Counted from the stretch's first letter, positions 2 to 35,416 are shown. The stretch: 41,043 nucleotides of DNA from Lachnospiraceae bacterium (GCA_017961385.1 JAGCXJ010000022.1:1-41043); one strand, 5' to 3'. Program-made: numbers and translations. The notes: a model not told the origin generated them from the letters alone.

Positions 2-160
2 GAACTTCAGCTTGTTGATCTGGCGGGATCCTACCCTTTAATTGTAAAGAACCTAAAAGAGCACAACGCCGATGAATGGTATGACCTTAAAGGATATGTG
101 ATAGACTGGGCGGGCGGCCGGACTCATCCGGATGAATCGCTTATATACAAGAGGATATGA
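2..160 (+). CDS. 3' end of an upstream ORF truncated by the window edge, function unknown
   Basis: Frame 2 is open from base 2 (ELQLVDLAGSYPL...DWAGGRTHPDESLIYKRI) to TGA 158-160. The stop overlaps the next ATG (ATGA), which suggests translational coupling. Confidence 0.7.
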   Translation, partial: ELQLVDLAGSYPLIVKNLKEHNADEWYDLKGYVIDWAGGRTHPDESLIYKRI

Positions 161-1416
161 TGAACTACAATTTGACTGATGAGAGAATAGAGGAACTGGC
201 AAAGAAGTACGGGACGCCTCTTTATGTATATGACAGAGATGTAATAAGAGAGAACAGCAGACTGCTTAAGGATTCCGTTTATCCGGGAGCCTCAGTATAT
301 TATGCAATGAAATGTAATCCCCTAGTCGGGATTTGCAGGGCTTTTAAAGAAGAGGGGCTGGGAATAGAGACGGCATCTAAAGGAGAGATCGTTGCAGCAC
401 TCAAAGCAGGATATAGTGGTGATGAGATCATATTTACGAGTCCCGGCAAGACCGAAGAAGAGATAGAATTCGCTGTGGAAAATGGCTTGAAGGTCATCAA
501 TGTTGATTCCTTGTATGAGGCTAAAATAGTTGACAGGATAGCTGCGAAACTTGGCAGGAAAGCACGTATTGCGGTACGCATCAATCCTACACAGTGCTTC
601 TCTAATGCCAAGATCAAAATGACGGGACTCCCCTCACAGTTCGGTGCAGAAGAGGAAGAACTGGATAAAGAGTTCTTTGACAGGCTTTCAGGTCTTTCCA
701 ACATAGAAACGGTTGGATTCCAGATATATATGGGAACCCAGATGCTTAAGGTCGAGGACATAATCGGTAATACCGAATATGCCATGAAATTGGCTGTCAG
801 ACTCTCAAAAGAGTACGGTATCAAGCTTAGATATCTTAACTGCGGCGGAGGGTTCGGAGTTAAATACTTCAAAAACGAAGAGCCTCTAGATGTGCAGGAT
901 TTAAAGAGCAAGATGCAAAAACTGCATGAACGAATGGGATCTGAACTTGCAGGTACCGAAGTGATCTTCGAGAGCGGAAGGTTCCTTATGGCTTTAGCGG
1001 GAGTGATGGTGACAAAAGTGTTATATCGCAAGGATTCCAAGGAACAGAGATTTCTTATATGCGACGGTGGGTCCAACTTCCATTCGTCTGCAGCCTTCCT
1101 CGGAAGATTTGTCCGTAATAATTTCCCGCAAAGGGCAATAAGCAAAAGCAATAAGACTGAGGATATCGAGACCATGGTATGCGGTCCTTTATGTACAAGC
1201 CTGGATGTGATGGGACAGAAGGTCATGATGGATAAAGGTGTTGACGCAGGGGATCTTATTGTGATCGAATGTTCGGGTGCATACGGATTTACCTACAGCC
1301 CTTCACTGTTTCTAAGTCATGAATCACCGGCGGAGATAATGGCTGAGAAAGATACAGTCACCGTCTTAAGACGAAGGGGAGAAGCCGATGACATCCTAAA
1401 ACTGCAGGAGTATTAA
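157..1416 (+). CDS. PLP-dependent group IV decarboxylase (diaminopimelate decarboxylase fold), BtrK-like aminoacyl-ACP decarboxylase
   Basis: 419 aa with YGTPLYVYD, PLP lysine motif YAMKCNP, GGGFG, ESGRFL, GPLCT and GAYG. It has QIYMGTQ where LysA has HIGSQ. Neighbouring ATP-grasp and ACP genes favour BtrK-like over LysA. Confidence 0.8.
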   Translation: MMNYNLTDERIEELAKKYGTPLYVYDRDVIRENSRLLKDSVYPGASVYYAMKCNPLVGICRAFKEEGLGIETASKGEIVAALKAGYSGDEIIFTSPGKTEEEIEFAVENGLKVINVDSLYEAKIVDRIAAKLGRKARIAVRINPTQCFSNAKIKMTGLPSQFGAEEEELDKEFFDRLSGLSNIETVGFQIYMGTQMLKVEDIIGNTEYAMKLAVRLSKEYGIKLRYLNCGGGFGVKYFKNEEPLDVQDLKSKMQKLHERMGSELAGTEVIFESGRFLMALAGVMVTKVLYRKDSKEQRFLICDGGSNFHSSAAFLGRFVRNNFPQRAISKSNKTEDIETMVCGPLCTSLDVMGQKVMMDKGVDAGDLIVIECSGAYGFTYSPSLFLSHESPAEIMAEKDTVTVLRRRGEADDILKLQEY

Positions 1417-1424
1417 GTAAGAAA

Positions 1425-2741
1425 ATGAGTTTTGATCTGCTTAGACATATTAGAGAAAATGATGAATATACGGTGATATGGCTCTTTAATATCGGCGTTG
1501 AGAAATACTGGAATAACAATGTATTTACGGTAAAAAGTGCAGGAGATGACATTGTTGTAGCCCATATGGAAGAGATGAACCTGTTGATAACAAGGCAGCA
1601 GGATATCTTGATATTAAGGGACGAACCTGATGTTGAATATCTTGAGGAAATGCGAAACTTCGGAGCGGAGATCCCCTCTATAGTGTGTCCGTCGCTAAAG
1701 GATGATGATAAGAGCATATCCGAGATAGTACTGGAAGATAAAAGCCTGACAGACAGGATAAAGGAGTTGTGCAGGAACAGGGAGAAGGTCGTTTTTGTTC
1801 CGTACGGAGTTTCATCCCTTGAAGAGAAGATAGCACAGAAACTGGGTGTGGATATATTCGGGCCTAAATCTGCAGATGCGATCAGAGTGAATGACAAGGT
1901 CTATTCGAGAAGATTTGCAATAGAACACGGATTTAGAGTCCCTGAAGGAAAGATATGCCTTGGGTATGATGAACTGTGCAGCACGGCAGGAGAGTATCTT
2001 GAAAGGTTTGGAAGGATAATAATCAAGGAACCTCACGGTGCATCAGGCAAAGGGCTCTGGGTAGTTGAAACGGCTGCCAAACTTAAGAGCACGCTTCTTA
2101 TCATAAAGAGATTCTATGATATTTCTGAGGACAGAGAATGGATCGTGGAACAGTGGTGTGATAAGCTTACTGATCTGAACTATCAGGTCTATGTAGGAGA
2201 AGATGAAGGTAAGCCGCATGTTGAAGTGTTCTCCGTTAAGGAACAGAGAGTTAACGGAACCGTATATACAGGATCTGTTATACCGCCCTCCTTTGATGAA
2301 AAGATCGTAAATGAGTGTGATGAATGCGGCAGGATAATAGGTGAAGAACTATACACAGAAGGTTACAGAGGCATACTCGGCATAGATGCGATGATCCTTA
2401 GTACAGGTGAACTGGTACCAATAGTGGAGATCAACGGAAGATTCACTTTGTCGACTTATCTTTCGTTTATACCGAACAGATGCAAGGAAGTAACAGACAA
2501 GATATTTGCTTCTTACCGTAAGGTAAAGCTTTGCAATGGCGACAGATATATTAACATAGTGAATAAACTGGCCGATGCCGGGATAGCATACAAGGACAGA
2601 GACGGTGTATTCGTATACACATCCGAGACTGTAAATTCGAACAGGACAGGTGAGTATGGCAGACTGTTCACCCTGTGCCTGGGTGGTGATGAGTCAAGAA
2701 CTGATGAACTTGATATTAAGTGCAGGCAGATCATTGAATAG
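1425..2741 (+). CDS. ATP-grasp ligase, BtrJ-like amino acid:ACP ligase
   Basis: 438 aa with ATP-grasp motifs VNDKVYSR, IIKEPHGASGKG, WIVEQW, GILGIDAM and VEINGRF. Lies between the decarboxylase and the ACP. Confidence 0.75.
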   Translation: MSFDLLRHIRENDEYTVIWLFNIGVEKYWNNNVFTVKSAGDDIVVAHMEEMNLLITRQQDILILRDEPDVEYLEEMRNFGAEIPSIVCPSLKDDDKSISEIVLEDKSLTDRIKELCRNREKVVFVPYGVSSLEEKIAQKLGVDIFGPKSADAIRVNDKVYSRRFAIEHGFRVPEGKICLGYDELCSTAGEYLERFGRIIIKEPHGASGKGLWVVETAAKLKSTLLIIKRFYDISEDREWIVEQWCDKLTDLNYQVYVGEDEGKPHVEVFSVKEQRVNGTVYTGSVIPPSFDEKIVNECDECGRIIGEELYTEGYRGILGIDAMILSTGELVPIVEINGRFTLSTYLSFIPNRCKEVTDKIFASYRKVKLCNGDRYINIVNKLADAGIAYKDRDGVFVYTSETVNSNRTGEYGRLFTLCLGGDESRTDELDIKCRQIIE

Positions 2742-2755
2742 AAAGGCGGATCAAA

Positions 2756-2995
2756 ATGGAAGATAAGATCAAAGAGATAGTCATATCTGTATTGGAATTG
2801 GCAGAAGATGATGCAAAACAGATTGAGGAAGATACGGATCTTCTGGAGTACGGACTTGATTCCATGACCTGTGTGGGAGTGGTGGTCAGTCTTGAAGAGG
2901 AATTCGGGATCACTGTGGATGAAGAGGATCTGTTGGTCGAGAACATGTCTACGATCAGCAAGATCAAGGAACTGGTCGAGAAGTACGAAGACTGA
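2756..2995 (+). CDS. Stand-alone acyl carrier protein (BtrI-like)
   Basis: 79 aa, very acidic, with phosphopantetheine motif YGLDSM and LEEEFGI. Purine-rich RBS-like GAAAGGCGGA upstream. Confidence 0.92.
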   Translation: MEDKIKEIVISVLELAEDDAKQIEEDTDLLEYGLDSMTCVGVVVSLEEEFGITVDEEDLLVENMSTISKIKELVEKYED

Positions 2996-3039
2996 TATAT
3001 CATCTGATCAAAGAAACGTAAAGAAGGCAGGATGGGATC

Positions 3040-4350
3040 ATGAGTGATGGTTTTGAAGCCGGAAGGCGTATGTACCGGTTTGCTGAGAAGATATTTCCCT
3101 ATACGAGAAGCATAACGGGCGAAGGTGTCAGACAGACATTAAGCGATATAGAAGAGTATATCGCATCATCGGGAACAAAGCTTAAGATTTCTGATATACC
3201 TTATGGAACACTGGTGTTTGACTGGACTGTTCCTAAGGAGTGGAAGATAAGAGAAGCCTATATAGAAGACGAAAACGGTGATCAAATCATAGACATGAAG
3301 GAATCAAATCTTCATGTGCTTGGATATTCTACACCTGTGGATGAATGGGTGGATCTTGATGAATTAAAAAGGCATATATATGTTGAAGAAAACCAGCCCG
3401 ATGTGATACCGTATGTGACCTCGTATTACAAGGAGCGCTTTGGCTTCTGCATGAGCAAGAATAAACTGGATTCCTTAAAAGACGGCAGATATCACATGTA
3501 TATAGACAGTGAGCTGTTTGACGGAGTGCTTAACTATGCTGAGGCGATCATACCCGGTGACAGTGATGAGGAGATCATGTTCTCGACATAGTTTTGTCAT
3601 CCTTCAATGGCGGATAATGAGTGCTCGGGTCCTGCGCTTGCAGCAGAACTCATCAATACGATCGCTTCAATGGATCACAGAAGATATACATACAGATTTG
3701 TATTCGTACCCGAGACAATAGGATCTATAACGTACTTGAGCCAGAATGATCATGTGGCTTATTTGCAGAAGCATTTAAAGGCAGGATTTGTACTGTCGTG
3801 CGTCGGCGATGACAATGACTATTCGATGATACATTCAAGATATGCGGATACTTATGCGGACAGAGTACTTTTAAATGTATTAAGCTACAAGGAAAAGCAT
3901 ACCATTTACGGATTCAACAAGCGCGGTTCGGATGAGAGGCAGTATAATGCGCCCGGAGTTGATCTTCCGGTCGTATGCTTCTGCAGGTCAAAATTCGGTG
4001 AGTTTGCCGAATATCACACATCGGCTGACAACATGGACTTTGTATCTAAAGAAGGCTTTCAGGGCGCATATGATGCGATGATGGAAGCTGTTAACATTCT
4101 TGAAAAGAACGCACGCTACAGGATGAAGGTACTGTGCGAGCCTCAGCTGGGAAAACGAGGTCTGTATTCGGATATCAGCAGAAAGGGTATCTATGATACG
4201 ATACTTGTTCAGCGCGATGTCATATCCTACTGTGACGGAAAAAACGATCTTTTGGATCTGAGTGAACGCATCGGTGTACCTGTAAGCGATATCATAGATA
4301 TAATAGAAAGACTTAAGGAAAACGATCTTTTGGAAGAAACTAAAGAGTGA
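3040..4350 (+). pseudogene. DUF4910/DUF2172 aminopeptidase-like polysaccharide-locus protein with C-terminal winged HTH, interrupted by an in-frame TAG at 3589-3591
   Basis: ORFs 3040-3591 and 3607-4350 share one frame and read RSITGEGVRQTL, VFDWTVPKEW, PYVTSYY, FST*FCHPSMADNECSGP, PETIGSI, GSDERQY, EYHTSAD, CEPQLGKRGLY. The stop sits where the family has Tyr (STYxCHPS). Could be a true lesion or a sequencing error. Confidence 0.8.
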
Positions 4351-4354
4351 TCAT

Positions 4355-5386
4355 ATGAAGTTAAGTATAATCGTACCCGTCTACAACATGGAGGCAGATG
4401 ACAAGCTTACATTCTGCCTGGATTCTCTGATCTCCCAGAATCTTGATGATTACGAGATAATAGCTGTCGATGACGCTTCCACGGATGCGTCATTTGAGAT
4501 CATGAAAAGCTATGAGCAGAAACATCCTGATCTGGTAAGAGCGATCCACAGTGATGTAAACAGGCATCAGGGCGGAGCCAAGAACATCGGAATAAGACAG
4601 GCCAAAGGCGAATGGATAGGCTTTATTGATGCCGATGACTGGATAGATCCCGATATGTATAAAAAGCTTATCACAAAAGCTGAGGAGACAGGAGCAGGTG
4701 TTGTAGGCTGTGACTATGTCATGGTAAACGATCATACATACGAGATCAATGGGCCGGTAGATGCAAATTCAAGAGATGATCAGACAGGAGAGCTTGATCA
4801 TGACAGAAAGGCAAGCCTCATTCTTGACGGAGGAAGCCTTTGCGTCAAGATATTCAAAAGACAGACGATAATCGATAATGAGCTCTTCTTTCCCGAGGAT
4901 ATATTCTATGAAGATAATGCGATGAGCGACGGCTATCTTCTCACTGCAGGCAGGTTTGAATACATAAAGGAGCCCCTGTATTATTACTACCAGCATGATA
5001 CATCAACCGTCCATTCATTTTCTGAAAGAAGATGCGAGGACAGGATGGCGGCGGGACGCATCATAATCGATGAAGCAAAAAGACTCGGTTTTTTTGATGA
5101 GTTTAAAGAAGAGATAGAATTTAAGTTCACACAGCTTTTCTATGTCAACACACTCTTTACTTACATGCCATGTGTAAGACCAGCCAGGATGGGATTTGTA
5201 AAGAAGATGAGTGAGGAGATGCGGGATAGATTTCCTGACTTTCAAAAGAACAGATATTATCTTGAAAGAGTGGGTAAAGAGGAGCAAAAGCTCATCGACA
5301 TGGCTCAAAAGTCGACTTTTGAATTCTTTGTTTACTACAGACTGCTTTGGACATATCGCAATCTGCGCAAACGTTTAGGAGTATGA
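4355..5386 (+). CDS. Glycosyltransferase family 2
   Basis: LSIIVPVYN, EIIAVDDASTD, GGAKNIG, FIDADD (DxD) and FYEDN motifs. Confidence 0.93.
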   Translation: MKLSIIVPVYNMEADDKLTFCLDSLISQNLDDYEIIAVDDASTDASFEIMKSYEQKHPDLVRAIHSDVNRHQGGAKNIGIRQAKGEWIGFIDADDWIDPDMYKKLITKAEETGAGVVGCDYVMVNDHTYEINGPVDANSRDDQTGELDHDRKASLILDGGSLCVKIFKRQTIIDNELFFPEDIFYEDNAMSDGYLLTAGRFEYIKEPLYYYYQHDTSTVHSFSERRCEDRMAAGRIIIDEAKRLGFFDEFKEEIEFKFTQLFYVNTLFTYMPCVRPARMGFVKKMSEEMRDRFPDFQKNRYYLERVGKEEQKLIDMAQKSTFEFFVYYRLLWTYRNLRKRLGV

Positions 5387-5396
5387 TCTTTAATCT

Positions 5397-6467
5397 ATGA
5401 AAGACAGAATATATGTGTGTCATACATTTTATCATGTATATATAGCTGTTATAAAAGAGCTGAACTTAAAACCTGAAGCAAGGGGCAATGCCACTCTTGT
5501 TCTCAGCACGATGTCCAATGATTTCGGTTCTTTAAAAGACAGGGCAAAGGACAGCGGACTTTTTGAAGAAGTATATATGTTTGATGAGATCGAAGATGTA
5601 AAGCTCCCTGATGTCATGGCCTATCACATGGACAGGGGAAATATAATTCTTAATCTCATGCAGAGAATCAAGTATACAAAAAAGCTTGGAAAAGCTCAGG
5701 AAAAGAATGTACCCGTTGACTTTAAGCAGTATAAGGATATATACGTGTTCTGCGATTCCGATCCGATAGGATATTATCTGAATTATAAGCATATATATTA
5801 TCATGCGCTTGAAGACGGACTTGATACGATTGTCTATTGCGATGATGCAAGATACGCAAACAGAGGACATTTCGGACTCAAGGCATTCATGGCTAAACTG
5901 GGACTTATCTTTATCGAAAACGGCTATTCAAAGTACTGCATTGATATGGAAGTCAATGATCTTGGCGCCATCAAGTACAAAAACGATGCTTATATCGAAG
6001 TACCGAGAAAAAAGCTCATCCAAAATGTATCAAAAGATGACAGTCATCTTTTGCTGGATATCTTCATGGATAATCCAAAGCAGCTGCTTGAGCAGATAAA
6101 AGATGCAGGATCTGACAAAAAGAAGGTAATGATCCTATCCGATCCCGTTTGTGATCTTGAAACGAGAAAGAGGATCATGAGGGATATCATAAACGAGTAT
6201 GCAAAAGACTGCATAGCATTCATCAAGCCTCACCCGAGAGATATCCTTGATTATGATACAGATGATTTTAGCGACTGCATCATAATACGCGGGCGCTTTC
6301 CCATGGAGATGATGAACTACTTTGATGAGCTGCATATGGACAGAGTCGTTTCGATATTTACAGTAGTTGATGCTATATAATTTGCCGATGAAAAGATCAT
6401 GCTGGGAAATGATTTCATGGATAAATATGAGGACCCCTTGATCCACAGATGGAACGAACAGATATAG
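5397..6467 (+). CDS. Sialyltransferase-like (GT52/Lst-type) glycosyltransferase; predicted ORF ends at TAA 6378-6380 but the frame continues to TAG 6465-6467
   Basis: N-terminal YVCHTFYHVY plus the bacterial sialyltransferase D/E-D/E-G (LEDGLD) and HP (IKPHPRD) motifs and FPMEM. A 28-codon in-frame extension after the TAA ends 2 nt before the next ATG. Confidence 0.65.
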
Positions 6468-6469
6468 AT

Positions 6470-7567
6470 ATGATTGAATCAAGTATTCAGACAGGCCAAA
6501 AGAATAAAAGACAGTCAGGCTTTGAGCTTTTAAGGATCATATCGATGCTCATGATCATAGCCATGCACTACATGACAAAGGGCATGAAGATTGAAAAGCT
6601 ATCTATAGACTGCAGCATGACAAACGTGATCTACTGGATCATTTATGCTCTGTGTGTTTCATCTGTCAATGCATATGTGTTCATAAGCGGATACTTTGCT
6701 ACTGACTCAAAATGGAACCTAAAAAAACTGATAAGGCTCTGGGCACAGGTGCTTTCATATTCGATCCTTGTTCCTCTCATTATGTCGGCATTTGGCGCAT
6801 TTGATCTTAAAGGCGCGTCTCTTTCAGTAAAGCAGCAGATATTTCTGCCGGTGACATACGAGCATTACTGGTTTGCCACAGCATACATAATGCTGTATCT
6901 GATCTCGTATGTTTTGAATGTCGCTATATCAAAGCTTGACAAGAAAAGCTATAAGACAGTGCTTCTTGCACTCATAGCGGTATTTTGCGGATTCAAATCG
7001 ATAGATCCGTATCTGATCCCCTGGGATAAATACGGCAATGACATGATATGGTTCATTATCCTTTACCTTATCGGAGGATATATAAGGACATACGGCCTGC
7101 CTTTTACAGATAATAAGACCAAAAAGGAAACGGCAAGATTCGGACTTGTTATATATGCGGCATTCAGTCTGATAACGTTTTTGATCGCTTATGCGTTCTC
7201 GTTCATTGTAAGGAGCACGGGAAAGCTTGAATACTATATGGACATGACATACTGCTACAACTATGTCGCGGTACTGATCGCAAGCATCGGTCTGTTTGCA
7301 GTCTTTGCAAATATGGATATCGGACACCGTCCATGGATAAACAAAATAGCAAAGTATACGTTTGGCGTATATCTTCTTCATGATAATATTGTACTCAGAG
7401 AAAAGTGGCAGCATCTTCTTTTGATCGACTCTGCACAGGGAAAATGGTGGCAGATATTTCACATGATCATCTGCATCATCATCGTGTTCATTGTCGGATG
7501 CGTCATAGATCTTGTAAGAGACGGCGTGTTTAATGCCTTTGCAAAAACAGGTAAAAGCAGGCAGTAG
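6470..7567 (+). CDS. Acyltransferase family 3 (OafA-like multi-pass membrane glycan acyltransferase)
   Basis: RQSGFELLRIISMLMIIAMH, VFISGYF, YWFATAY, FGVYLLH and about 10 hydrophobic segments. Start placed at ATG 6470; the ORF track starts at 6449. Confidence 0.85.
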   Translation: MIESSIQTGQKNKRQSGFELLRIISMLMIIAMHYMTKGMKIEKLSIDCSMTNVIYWIIYALCVSSVNAYVFISGYFATDSKWNLKKLIRLWAQVLSYSILVPLIMSAFGAFDLKGASLSVKQQIFLPVTYEHYWFATAYIMLYLISYVLNVAISKLDKKSYKTVLLALIAVFCGFKSIDPYLIPWDKYGNDMIWFIILYLIGGYIRTYGLPFTDNKTKKETARFGLVIYAAFSLITFLIAYAFSFIVRSTGKLEYYMDMTYCYNYVAVLIASIGLFAVFANMDIGHRPWINKIAKYTFGVYLLHDNIVLREKWQHLLLIDSAQGKWWQIFHMIICIIIVFIVGCVIDLVRDGVFNAFAKTGKSRQ

Positions 7568-19364: not shown

Positions 19365-21890
19365 ATGAAAAGAATCCTTATCAGATGGTTTGTCATCATT
19401 GTGGCCTTCTTTGCATCACTGTTTGCCTTTAACATCCTGATGAACCGCGGAACAACCGATATGACGATAGATATGCCGGAAGCAACACTTCCGGTTATTA
19501 GCGTGCTCTACGGGGACAAGAGCGTCAATACGATGTACGGCTATACAGAACGTATGGATGCAGGAACCATGCGAGACAGCATATCTCCTATCGGCGATGA
19601 GCGCTCGCTCAGCTTTTCCGTCAATGCCTACAATACAGGCATAAGCAAGATAAGCTATGAAGTCAGAAGCTTGGACGGAGGCAGGCTTATCGAAGAGACA
19701 ATGGTCGGAAACTACGAGCATAAGACAGGCAGGATAGTCGGCACGATAAACTTAAAGGATCTGATAGAAAAGGATAAGGAATCCAATCTTGGCTTCGTAT
19801 TAAAGCTCACAGACGGAAGGGATGTATATTACTATACGAGGATCATCTGCAAGGAAGATGTGGCTGTAAACGAAAAGCTTGATTTTATCCACAACTTCAA
19901 TTCCATGACATTTTCACAGACTGACGTAAGGAGCCTGTATTCATATATGGAGCCGAACTCCGAAGGGGACAATTCGTCTTTCGGATATGTAAATATACAC
20001 AGCAATCTGAATCAGCTCGGCTGGGGGAATATGCATCCGAGGATCGAAGGCGATATAAGGACTACCATATGCGACATAGGTTCATCGACCGCATCTGTAA
20101 TGCTCGAATACATGGTGAGTGTCAGAAACGATTCCATCGTGAATTATTACATGATCGAGGAGTTTTACAGGATAAGACAGGGCACTGACAGATTCTATCT
20201 TCTGACATATGACAGGAGCATGAAGGAAATATTTGTGGCTGAAAAGGAATCACTTGTGAACAACAAGATAGTCCTGGGAATACAGAACGGCGATATTCAG
20301 GTCAGGGAAAGCGATGACGGAAACATCATAGTGCTGGAAAACTGTGGAAGACTGTTCAGCTATGATGTATCGGCAAACAAGCTGGCAACGCTTTACGGCT
20401 TCTTTACAGCAGGCGATACGGATTTAAGAGACATACATAACGAATCAAAGATAAAGATCCTTTCTGTTGAGGAAAACGGAAATGTTTCATTTGCCGTATA
20501 CGGGTATATGAACCGAGGGATACATGAGGGTCAGACAGGTGTACTCGTTGAATACTACAACAGTCTTTTGAATACCGTTGAGGAGCAGATGTTTGTTGAA
20601 TATAACAGATCTCCTCAGATTTTGATAGCCGATATAGACAGGCTGTGCTATCTAAACAACAACAAGCAGCTCTATGCGTTCATAGACGGAAACATCATAA
20701 AGGCAGATGCCGATAATCTGAGTGTTTCTGTCATCTCCGACAAGGTCATAGAAAATACGCTTTACGTGTCAAAGAGCGGAAGGAGCGCAATGTGGCAGGA
20801 GAGCGAGGATGTTGCATCACAGCTTAACACCATCGATATGGGCGACGGCTTTATAAGCAGCGTGGAAAAGAGCGACAGTGAATGCCTGCGTCCCATAGGA
20901 TACATGAACGATGATCTGATATACGGCGTCAGCAACAGAAACGATATAATATACAATCCTCTCGGAGATACGACATTTCTGATGGCAAAGATTGTCATAA
21001 GATCGAGATTTGGCGCAATCCTTAAGGAATATGACTTCGAGGACATATTTGTTGTAGAGGGAGAGATAAACGAGAACCAGATAAGCCTAAAGAGAGTTGA
21101 AAGGCATTCTGACGGCTCTTACAGCGAGATCCATGATGACCAGATAACAAACAATGATTCAACGGATACTGGCAAGAACAAGGTCGTATATGCTCTGACG
21201 GATATGTTTGAAAAGGTGGCTCAGATCGAGCTTATGTCAAATATCGATGCAAAGACTTTAAAGTTTCTTACTCCAAAGGAAGTACTCTATGAATCGGGCA
21301 AGAACATAAAGCCTGAGTTTAATGAGGACAAGAAACGTTTCTACATGTATGACAGAGGCAGGATAGGCATGATAAGCGACAGTCCTTTGGATGTCATAAG
21401 TCCCTCTTACGAGAGACGAGCTCTTGTCGTGGACAATCTTGGAAACGAAGTATATAAAAGAGGAGAGACTCATGCAAGAAATCAGATCATGTCAATCAAG
21501 GAAGACAGCATGAGTCAAGACAGGGATTCCATGGCTACGTGTCTTGATATCATCCTAAGGCAGAGAGGGATATCAAGAAATACGGAGGCGATGTTGGCTC
21601 AGGGAAAGACGCCATACGAGATACTCGATGAAAATCTTGATAATGTGCATGTGCTCAACTTAAGCGGATGCATCATGGATACGGCCGTTTACTATCTCAA
21701 TCAGGATATACCGGTGCTTGCAATAGCGGACGACGGAAGGACGATCTTACTTGTGGGATATAACGAGCAGAATGTCGTCTGGTACGATCCTGTGATGGGA
21801 AGCATATACAAAAAGGGAATGAGTGATTCCCGCGAACTGTTTGATGAGAGCGGGAACAGATTTTTAACTTACAGCCTGATGGCCGAATGA
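19365..21890 (+). CDS. Large membrane-anchored hypothetical protein (841 aa)
   Basis: Long ORF with one N-terminal TM anchor and a beta-rich body. The C-terminus resembles a degenerate C39-peptidase-like fold. Confidence 0.8.
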   Translation: MKRILIRWFVIIVAFFASLFAFNILMNRGTTDMTIDMPEATLPVISVLYGDKSVNTMYGYTERMDAGTMRDSISPIGDERSLSFSVNAYNTGISKISYEVRSLDGGRLIEETMVGNYEHKTGRIVGTINLKDLIEKDKESNLGFVLKLTDGRDVYYYTRIICKEDVAVNEKLDFIHNFNSMTFSQTDVRSLYSYMEPNSEGDNSSFGYVNIHSNLNQLGWGNMHPRIEGDIRTTICDIGSSTASVMLEYMVSVRNDSIVNYYMIEEFYRIRQGTDRFYLLTYDRSMKEIFVAEKESLVNNKIVLGIQNGDIQVRESDDGNIIVLENCGRLFSYDVSANKLATLYGFFTAGDTDLRDIHNESKIKILSVEENGNVSFAVYGYMNRGIHEGQTGVLVEYYNSLLNTVEEQMFVEYNRSPQILIADIDRLCYLNNNKQLYAFIDGNIIKADADNLSVSVISDKVIENTLYVSKSGRSAMWQESEDVASQLNTIDMGDGFISSVEKSDSECLRPIGYMNDDLIYGVSNRNDIIYNPLGDTTFLMAKIVIRSRFGAILKEYDFEDIFVVEGEINENQISLKRVERHSDGSYSEIHDDQITNNDSTDTGKNKVVYALTDMFEKVAQIELMSNIDAKTLKFLTPKEVLYESGKNIKPEFNEDKKRFYMYDRGRIGMISDSPLDVISPSYERRALVVDNLGNEVYKRGETHARNQIMSIKEDSMSQDRDSMATCLDIILRQRGISRNTEAMLAQGKTPYEILDENLDNVHVLNLSGCIMDTAVYYLNQDIPVLAIADDGRTILLVGYNEQNVVWYDPVMGSIYKKGMSDSRELFDESGNRFLTYSLMAE

Positions 21891-34753: not shown

Positions 34754-35416
34754 ATGGATATAAAGCAAAAGATCGCACAGTGGATACCGACACATGTTTC
34801 TCCGAAACTTGTGGTGTTTGTATACGGTGTACTTGACAGGCTGATATATATAAAAAAATCTGTAAGGAAAGAAAACAGGCTGGTAAACGATCAGGTGTTA
34901 AACAGCGACAGCTCGCCCTATAAGCAGGGCTATATAGAGAACCAGAGCGAATGGAAGAATGTTAAATTCGGAAGATCGACAATGGCTTTTTCGGGCTGCG
35001 AGATCATGGCTGTCTACAATGTTTTATATGCCCTTGACAGAGGAAAGGGAACGAAGCTTATCGGTGAGCTCATAGAAGAGTTTGAAAAGAGCGGAGCTGC
35101 CTTGAAGGGAATGATCGGCTCATCGCCAAGGTCGATAAGAAGACATCTTTTAAAGCACGGGATAAAGAGCAGCATCGTATGGAAAGAGGAAGATATCGAT
35201 CCTGACTGCACACTTGCTGTCGCGACCGTCTATAATGACAAAAAGACTCTTTATTCACAGATACATACCATTGCATTTACAAAGGACGAGAACGGGTTTA
35301 GAGCTCATAACGCTCGAAGCAGACAGAAGTACTATCCCACATTAAGAGAAGCGATAAACGGTGTGGGCAGCGATCCGAAGATGATATGCGCGATACAGAT
35401 AGATAAAAATTTATAG
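34754..35416 (+). CDS. Hypothetical protein, possible C39-like cysteine peptidase fold
   Basis: 220 aa; ENQ...SGCEIMAVYN, IHTIAF and AHNA fit a papain-like Cys/His/Asn order. Confidence 0.55.
   Translation: MDIKQKIAQWIPTHVSPKLVVFVYGVLDRLIYIKKSVRKENRLVNDQVLNSDSSPYKQGYIENQSEWKNVKFGRSTMAFSGCEIMAVYNVLYALDRGKGTKLIGELIEEFEKSGAALKGMIGSSPRSIRRHLLKHGIKSSIVWKEEDIDPDCTLAVATVYNDKKTLYSQIHTIAFTKDENGFRAHNARSRQKYYPTLREAINGVGSDPKMICAIQIDKNL

Follow-up and report, generated by a model that had tools for sequence, protein, structure and literature searches.

A stretch of 41,043 nucleotides from Lachnospiraceae bacterium (GCA_017961385.1 JAGCXJ010000022.1:1-41043; the whole stretch is referred to below as the window) carries seven genes at positions 157-7567, all on the plus strand and with spacings of -19 to 44 bases between neighbours. 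They encode a decarboxylase dependent on pyridoxal phosphate (PLP), an ATP-grasp ligase, an acyl carrier protein (ACP), a DUF4910 protein, two glycosyltransferases (GT2 and GT52) and a membrane acyltransferase (Table 1). The genes and their place are those described in the initial annotation, which had proposed a butirosin-like module embedded in a surface-glycan locus. Its statement that the window lacks nonribosomal peptide synthetase (NRPS), polyketide synthase (PKS) and aminocyclitol genes was reproduced in a Pfam scan of the 26 window proteins. The arrangement was seen again in four other genomes of the genus and in several metagenome contigs, and is therefore not a product of chance. Sequence comparison and analogy lead us, on balance, to read the locus as one in which a loader of the butirosin/closthioamide type serves the tailoring of pseudaminic acid (Pse), with a likely ω-aminoacyl donor (β-alanyl or 4-aminobutyryl) replacing an N-acetyl group on the Pse of a surface glycan. 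The comparison set comprised 26 genomes of the same genus. The genome of the window itself (G000) is 66% complete and in 360 contigs, and the five genomes that carry the decarboxylase, ligase and ACP together (the trio; G000, G408, G419, G423 and G424) are 66-95% complete.

Table 1. Features at the left end of the window (positions counted from its first nucleotide).
Feature	Position	Strand	Basis
AAC(3)-family (Antibiotic_NAT) acyltransferase, 3' end, last 52 codons	2..160	+	98% to C-terminus of L014:1037-1897 (PF02522, E 1.8e-25)
BtrK/CtaF-type fold-III PLP decarboxylase, predicted substrate aminoacyl-ACP	157..1416	+	312 bits to BtrK; K52, Y191, C346, T347
BtrJ/CtaD-family ATP-grasp ligase, predicted Asp/Glu loading on ACP	1425..2741	+	PF18604 (PreATP-grasp) + PF02655
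Free-standing acyl/peptidyl carrier protein, Ser36 in GLDS motif	2756..2995	+	PF00550, E 2.6e-13
DUF4910/DUF2172/HTH_47, single-zinc amidohydrolase-like (Cj1295/CA_C2195 family), predicted N-deacetylase	3040..4350	+	Pfam; intact orthologue 349 bits to 3K9T
GT2 glycosyltransferase of glycan	4355..5386	+	PF00535, E 5e-35; orthologues in genus pse loci
GT52 sialyltransferase-like, predicted cytidine monophosphate (CMP)-Pse transferase	5397..6467	+	PF07922, E 1.4e-10; 99% to intact 356-aa L014 protein
Membrane acyltransferase Acyl_transf_3, probably O-acetyltransferase	6449..7567	+	PF01757, E 2.7e-30

The butirosin reference was the cluster in genome G1325, found by an order-level search after BtrK proved absent from the first search set of Paenibacillus-type genus genomes; its BtrK is 99% identical to PDB entry 2J66, and btrC, F, G, H, I, J, K and O were assigned in it from gene order and Pfam matches. 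The closthioamide reference was locus L141 in genome G1042, recognized by a gene content matching the roles given in PMC7183216 (this and the other articles cited by PMC number are represented here by excerpts). Against BtrK the decarboxylase reaches 312 bits, and against the best diaminopimelate (DAP) decarboxylase 193 bits; its identities are 38% to BtrK and 34.9% to CtaF. It has Tyr191 and Thr347 where a LysA-like row has His and Glu, and at 38 positions it agrees with BtrK and CtaF against that row. In a quick tree (20 of 63 non-redundant rows excluded, mostly near-duplicates) the Pse-linked decarboxylases form one group (nine rows, support 99), nested among uncharacterized enzymes of the noncanonical thiotemplated (NCT) type and apart from the LysA-like rows. 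Scores and tree position thus bear out the earlier assignment of this protein to the BtrK type and not to LysA.

The ligase is 26.7% identical to BtrJ over 341 residues and 28.1% identical to CtaD over 427 residues, and its ATP-grasp catalytic residues K158, K201, E242, D321, E335, N337 and R339 are common to both. Its predicted structure (mean predicted local distance difference test score of 93) is nearest to the folds of 8YND, PGM1 and BesA peptide ligases, with template-modelling scores of 0.70-0.74. The ACP is 54% identical to BtrI over 52 residues and 40% identical to CtaE over 77 residues, with an invariant D35-S36; the homology of both proteins to BtrJ and BtrI, as first annotated, is upheld. 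In a quick tree of 52 ligase rows, drawn from selected loci, the ligase sits inside a 98-supported clade that contains CtaD and BtrJ, on a branch separate from BtrJ. The Pse-linked ligases in this tree form one group (nine rows, support 100) nested among uncharacterized NCT enzymes and apart from BtrJ and CtaD. Judged by sequence, the trio falls within the NCT loader family, and neither BtrJ nor CtaD is the orthologue of its ligase, since the Pse-linked ligases occupy their own branch. CtaD loads aspartate and CtaF decarboxylates it, iterating to a tri-β-alanyl chain, and BtrJ and BtrK proceed likewise with glutamate (PMC7183216, in excerpt). The initial annotation had specified the conversion of glutamate to γ-aminobutyrate (GABA); this part is not supported, as the ligase is about equally far from BtrJ and from CtaD, and GABA and β-alanine both remain candidate products.

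The window opens within a gene of the AAC(3) family (AAC3 hereafter). Residues 1-271 of its product are encoded on contig C310 of G000; this contig and the start of the window have 111 bases in common, with 96.4% identity (four mismatches). The closest solved structures are YokD, a Bacillus N3-acetyltransferase and FrbF. T166, H169 and E172, which we take to be the catalytic positions of AAC(3) enzymes, are invariant across 16 orthologues, and AAC3 is a predicted acyl-ACP:amino-sugar N-acyltransferase. Prediction of an AAC3-ACP complex gave 0.15 against a mark of 0.32 and was used neither for nor against this role. Among the partners that the initial annotation had suggested looking for upstream, a BtrH-like transferase was found in none of the five trio genomes (an AAC(3)-family gene is there instead), whereas a phosphopantetheinyl transferase (PPTase; PF01648) is present in all five; the nonulosonate synthase gene pseI lies in the trio loci of two relatives, G419 and metagenome contig L018. 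Homologues of BtrO, BtrH_N and BtrG were each sought in the five trio genomes and found in none, in agreement with the earlier remark that no BtrO-like oxygenase is visible.

Gene context narrows the acceptor to pseudaminic acid or a precursor of it. G419 (95% complete) and L018 share the order pseB ... pseC-AAC3-decarboxylase-ligase-ACP-DUF4910-pseI-pseG-second ATP-grasp-GT2, followed in G419 by pseF, GT52, an ATP-binding cassette (ABC) transporter, GtrA and Acyl_transf_3; PseB, PseC, PseI, PseG and PseF of G419 all score above the NCBIfam equivalog cut-offs. The order pseC-AAC3-decarboxylase recurs in G423 and G424. Across the genus, PseC is above its cut-off in 23 of the 26 genomes and NeuB-family genes occur in 20. 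In G000, contig C163 reads pseB-pseC-pseG-like-ABC with pseB and pseC above cut-off, and G407 shows a similarly split layout, with pseF-GNAT-pseI on another contig (GNAT, GCN5-related N-acetyltransferase). The link to a surface glycan made in the initial annotation recurs within the genus, with the trio placed inside the Pse pathway. The presence of GT52, the ABC flippase, GtrA and YfhO suggests that the glycan is lipid-linked and would end on the wall or on proteins; Maf transferase (PF01973) was found in none of the five trio genomes and flagellin in all five. The AAC3 transferase, the Pse acceptor pathway and the exchange of cassettes described below are absent from the initial annotation.

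Several other features of these loci may be recorded. Loci with and without the trio have a second ATP-grasp_4 ligase after pseG (L011:5218-6465 in G419, L001:5195-6358, L018:15327-16493); it is not found in the window and may add a further amino acid. G403, which is without AAC3 and DUF4910, has a WbuX-family N-acetyl sugar amidotransferase (L231:10034-11182) among pseF, GNAT and pseI, probably for an acetamidino variant. Contigs C96 and C342 of G000 bear a further amino-sugar cluster (dehydratase and aminotransferase) and a WecE-like gene. In several genus genomes a fold-III decarboxylase of a different type lies between or beside pseC and pseI (L206:16510-17802, L207:16528-17721, L216:4934-6145, L232:3752-5071 and L213:19042-19998); in most cases another ATP-grasp ligase is close by, and no ACP adjoins it. 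Those scanned match FslC best, below its cut-off, and the set may represent carrier-free aminoacylation followed by decarboxylation on the sugar.

Sixteen of the 26 genus genomes contain both AAC3 and DUF4910, and the other ten contain neither. In all 16, an ACP with a loader stands beside AAC3: this is the trio in five genomes and a stand-alone amino-acid adenylation enzyme in 11 (G401, G402, G405, G406, G407, G409, G411, G412, G417, G420 and G422), four of which have a different, distant decarboxylase adjoining the ACP. In G407, G406 and G409 the adenylation enzyme occupies the slot of the trio, ahead of DUF4910-GT2-GT52-AT3-Sua5. DUF4910, GT2, GT52 and Sua5 of the window are 87-90% identical to those of G407 (adenylation type), with the ACP at 34% and AAC3 at 70%; against G424 (trio) the values are 81% for DUF4910, 69% for GT2, 71% for GT52, 89% for the ACP and 76% for AAC3. 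The AAC3 branch leading to the adenylation-type G407 and G422 has a length of 0.42, and the DUF4910 branch leading to G407, G409 and G406 a length of 0.049; two changes of loader type are required in each of the two trees. The long AAC3 branch and the short DUF4910 branch suggest that AAC3 adapts to the acyl-ACP and that DUF4910 does not see the acyl group. AAC3 would thus read the acyl-ACP and DUF4910 the sugar, a division of labour drawn from one exchange event.

Two of the sibling adenylation enzymes gave only generic NRPS/DltA matches in the PDB. In G405 (L203:8847-10430) and its kin G402, G411 and G420, the adenylation enzyme is paired with a decarboxylase and has FDFDVSVK after its core; the Lys at this pocket position may denote specificity for an acidic amino acid, and this type of enzyme plus decarboxylase could converge on the same ω-aminoacyl product. 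In L021 (L021:2612-3049), ligase, ACP and DUF4910 are followed by an adenosine monophosphate (AMP)-binding enzyme, and G408 has two DUF4910 genes (on C44 and C96), so that some strains may carry two cassettes.

In the pathway that we propose, a chromosomal PPTase, the gene for which is present, would convert the ACP to its holo form. The ligase, as CtaD and BtrJ suggest, would couple the side-chain carboxyl of Asp or Glu to the ACP, and the decarboxylase would take off the α-carboxyl to give β-alanyl- or 4-aminobutyryl-ACP, possibly through further rounds. PseB, PseC and a PseH-like GNAT would furnish the uridine diphosphate (UDP)-diacetamido precursor (the GNAT, pseI and pseF are found only in relatives of G000). 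By analogy with Cj1295, DUF4910 would then strip the N-acetyl group at the future N5, and AAC3, to judge from its position, family and co-variation, would pass the acyl group from the ACP to the freed amine, the substrate of both steps being either the UDP-sugar or CMP-Pse. PseG, PseI and PseF would complete the sugar, GT52 would place the modified Pse on a lipid-linked glycan and the ABC flippase would export it. N5 is the likely site because the DUF4910 protein Cj1295 of Campylobacter jejuni, encoded after pseB-pseC and before the N-acetyltransferase Cj1296/7, is required for N5-dimethylglyceroyl Pse (PMC3068675, in excerpt). The DUF4910 structure has a single-zinc, non-peptidase site (PMC4000134, in excerpt). 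PseH-like GNATs adjoin pseF in G407, G403 and G412 and are present in G419 and G424, which gives N7 a candidate enzyme of its own.

A number of observations weigh against this reading. The removal of the N5 acetyl group is a hypothesis of the authors who described Cj1295 (PMC3068675, in excerpt), and the excerpted account of the DUF4910 structure suggests transacylation, an amidase role needing unusual residues (PMC4000134). In comparison with 3K9T, an intact DUF4910 orthologue keeps both His zinc ligands and has Asn at the position of Asp195. The PseH-like GNATs score 66-81 bits against a cut-off of 93, and those of G419, G424 and G410 lie near wecE and so could serve Fuc4N instead. In G000, at 66% completeness, pseI and pseF were not found. 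The 26 genus genomes are kin and partly incomplete, so that their co-occurrence counts do not amount to 26 independent cases. As to the choice of amino acid, the 80 conserved ligase positions include 19 that agree with CtaD alone and 13 that agree with BtrJ alone, whereas the decarboxylase leans the other way, with 20 positions matching BtrK only and 12 matching CtaF only; assignment of Asp or Glu by residue counts or trees was dropped for this reason.

The chief alternative retains the donor and moves the site: AAC3 would replace PseH and acylate the 4-amino group of the PseC product (the future N7) with a protected dipeptidyl unit such as γ-Glu-GABA, and DUF4910 would trim the protecting residue as BtrG does. 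AAC3 directly follows pseC in G419, G423, G424, L015 and L018, no GNAT exceeds the PseH cut-off in any of the five trio genomes, no BtrG homologue was found in the same genomes, the DUF4910 fold is peptidase-like and an N7-glyceroyl Pse is described for Tannerella forsythia (PMC5378307, in excerpt). We nevertheless regard it as unlikely, since DUF4910 also accompanies non-amino donors, which leave nothing to deprotect: the N5-dimethylglyceroyl group of C. jejuni (PMC3068675, in excerpt) and a locus with an ACP and a haloacid dehalogenase (HAD)-type phosphatase in Clostridium acetobutylicum (PMC4000134, Table 2, in excerpt). DUF4910 also barely changed when the loader was swapped, and PseH-like GNATs adjoin pseF in three genomes. 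It is improbable that the acyl-ACP decorates another glycan sugar (for example Fuc4N, via WecE) or forms an O-ester through the membrane acyltransferase, the Pse genes being mere neighbours. The presence of wecE and several Acyl_transf_3 genes within the same loci, and the separation of the block from pseB-pseC-pseG in G000 and G407, would suit such a scheme; yet wecE and Acyl_transf_3 are also present in G410 and G413, genomes without AAC3 and DUF4910, Acyl_transf_3 being found there in pse loci with no ACP module, the block keeps its adjoining GT2 and GT52 even where it is split from pseBC, and Cj1295 acts on Pse (PMC3068675, in excerpt).

A housekeeping LysA role for the decarboxylase, or membership of the trio in a separate secondary-metabolite cluster, is highly improbable and largely refuted. 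The decarboxylase does reach 294 on the lysA model TIGR01048, just short of the cut-off of 298, and the clusters in which the nearest outside relatives occur contain candidate papain-like transacylases, AMP ligases and exporters. However, CtaF scores 292 on the same model, which therefore does not separate BtrK/CtaF-type enzymes from LysA; the 38 positions shared with BtrK and CtaF also speak for the BtrK type, and G000 has its own LysA-like gene (our label) on C131. Upstream, C310 holds only AAC3 and two signalling-type genes (assigned by inspection), and Sua5 lies downstream. A different doubt concerns this strain alone, in which the locus might be off or decaying, with the mechanism unaffected: within the 7.4-kb run, the DUF4910 gene has an in-frame TAG at 3589-3591 and the GT52 gene an in-frame TAA at 6378-6380, both in this assembly only. 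Decay seems improbable to us. All four sequencing runs compared read a sense codon at each site, although these runs are not linked to the source sample, and contig L014 (92% identical over 8 kb) has sense codons at both sites and intact genes, so that the stops are private to the assembly or the strain. Base-call errors are plausible, as the assembly is in 360 contigs and AAC3 itself is interrupted by a strain-mismatch break.

The ligase is found in five of the 26 genus genomes and, in samples that each count G000, in two of 401 genomes of the family, four of 401 of the phylum, 11 of 398 of the class (three further genomes unscored) and five of 126 relatives. Those matches outside the genus that were inspected lie in non-Pse clusters. 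A single-protein scan across the genome contigs gave one locus, metagenomic homologues (P0006-P0036) are 50-62% identical and plasmid matches are at most 31% identical. In 89 loci with a ligase homologue below 55% identity (61 of them at least 8 kb long), AAC3, DUF4910 and PseI were each absent, and a candidate papain-like transacylase is present in 47; the papain-like set forms three clusters, two of which match BtrH and the third of which has one member with a Pfam BtrH_N match. Among the seven loci with a ligase of at least 55% identity, DUF4910 occurs in six and a papain-like gene in none. Across the genomes searched, recruitment into a Pse locus has the appearance of a single event in a single genus.

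Two groups of these wider relatives deserve mention. In metagenome clusters L019, L027 and L038, the ligase is 38-51% identical to that of the window, and two ACPs are present in L019 and L027. These clusters contain a PP-loop-like protein (SGGKD motif by inspection; no Pfam match in the scanned member), candidate transacylases and exporters, and are possible thioamide or other NCT metabolite clusters. L142, in the same genome as the closthioamide cluster (G1042), and its counterparts L143, L024 and L040 in relatives represent a second NCT cluster that is closer to the window trio (41-45%) than the closthioamide cluster is and that includes a thymidylate-kinase-like gene, a nucleotidyltransferase, a GT28-like gene and BtrH_N proteins.

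Directly 3' of the seven-gene run are Sua5 and then housekeeping genes. Positions 7574-41043 hold Sua5, a cell-wall hydrolase, an F-type ATP synthase run (assigned by inspection), a MurC-like ligase, a DnaB/DnaI-like pair, a phosphoribosyl pyrophosphate (PRPP) synthetase, a glgC/glgD-like pair, Mfd, Pth, a class I tRNA synthetase and a minus-strand hybrid histidine kinase. Open reading frames at 19365-21890 (841 residues) and 34754-35416 (220 residues) have no Pfam match, and for a downstream membrane protein an Atlas look-up gave a PMT_2 lead in only 19% of members. Ten sequencing runs from four studies, of bovine gut or gut metagenomes, each contain at least half of the words of the stretch; RNA runs contain 0.05-0.14 of them.

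Taken together, these observations lead us to a broader picture, offered tentatively and held a little short of an even call, in which an antibiotic-type thiotemplated line was recruited once into Pse biosynthesis. The product would be a zwitterionic N5-(β-alanyl or 4-aminobutyryl, perhaps oligomeric)-Pse7Ac, and AAC3 with DUF4910 would act as a general nonulosonate acyl-exchange device whose interchangeable ACP loaders (the trio, adenylation enzymes and glyceryl loaders) vary the surface. One branch among the approximately 400 orphan NCT loci (PMC7183216, in excerpt) would thereby gain a product hypothesis, and NCT chemistry would shift from antibiotics to the cell surface. If the picture is correct, a sialic-acid-like sugar would bear a positively charged amine, altering the charge of the surface and perhaps its recognition by phages or the host in the rumen. 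The route by which non-acetyl N-acyl groups reach Pse and the function of DUF4910 (Cj1295) become testable, the genus offering a natural series in which the same transferase/hydrolase pair works with different loaders, and such enzymes could serve the chemo-enzymatic synthesis of Pse variants.

Comparison with known systems places the two halves of the locus in different company. With butirosin BtrI, BtrJ and BtrK it shares a homologous ACP, ligase and decarboxylase at the identities given above, but BtrO, BtrH and BtrG were not found in the five trio genomes, no aminocyclitol genes occur in the locus, the ligase stands off the BtrJ branch and the transferase is of the AAC(3) family. The likeness to closthioamide CtaD, CtaE and CtaF extends to the ligase, carrier and decarboxylase and to an anaerobic host; however, the CtaC thioamide synthetase, a CtaG-type transacylase, the CtaH/CtaI aryl loading enzymes and a second carrier are all missing from the window and from the G419 and L018 loci. 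A survey of NCT loci sorts them into groups with ketosynthase III (KSIII), GT1 or NRPS/PKS genes, and its main text, as excerpted, names no nonulosonate pathway (PMC7183216). On the acceptor side, C. jejuni Cj1295 with Cj1296/7 likewise sets a DUF4910 protein beside pseB-pseC and an N-acyltransferase, and G405, G420 and G402 have the order pseC-DUF4910-AAC3; the predicted donor here differs in being derived from an amino acid by an NCT trio, and the target is seemingly a GT52/ABC-flippase glycan, in contrast to Maf-type flagellin. The CA_C2195 locus of C. acetobutylicum (PDB 3K9T, 349 bits; PMC4000134, in excerpt) also combines DUF4910, an aminosugar N-acetyltransferase, an ACP, a nonulosonate synthase and a second ATP-grasp ligase, with an acetyltransferase/HAD-phosphatase protein as the loader.

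Aminoacyl groups on surface amino sugars are known from Leg5GluNMe7Ac (PMC13317340) and from the type B peptidylamido sugar of Clostridioides difficile, for which an ATP-grasp enzyme is required (PMC5207246); the excerpted texts name no carrier protein, BtrK-type decarboxylase or decarboxylated ω-aminoacyl group in either case. No account of an aminobutyryl or β-alanyl Pse, or of a nonulosonate locus with an NCT trio, was found in a literature search whose coverage mostly excluded the subscription carbohydrate journals. NCT loader chemistry and aminoacylated surface sugars are thus both known already, and the combination of an NCT loader with Pse tailoring appears new. On present sequence grounds the locus belongs to the NCT loader family and lies outside the butirosin and closthioamide pathways: by analogy, its donor side works like BtrIJK and CtaDEF, and its acceptor side like Cj1295 and its partner acyltransferase.

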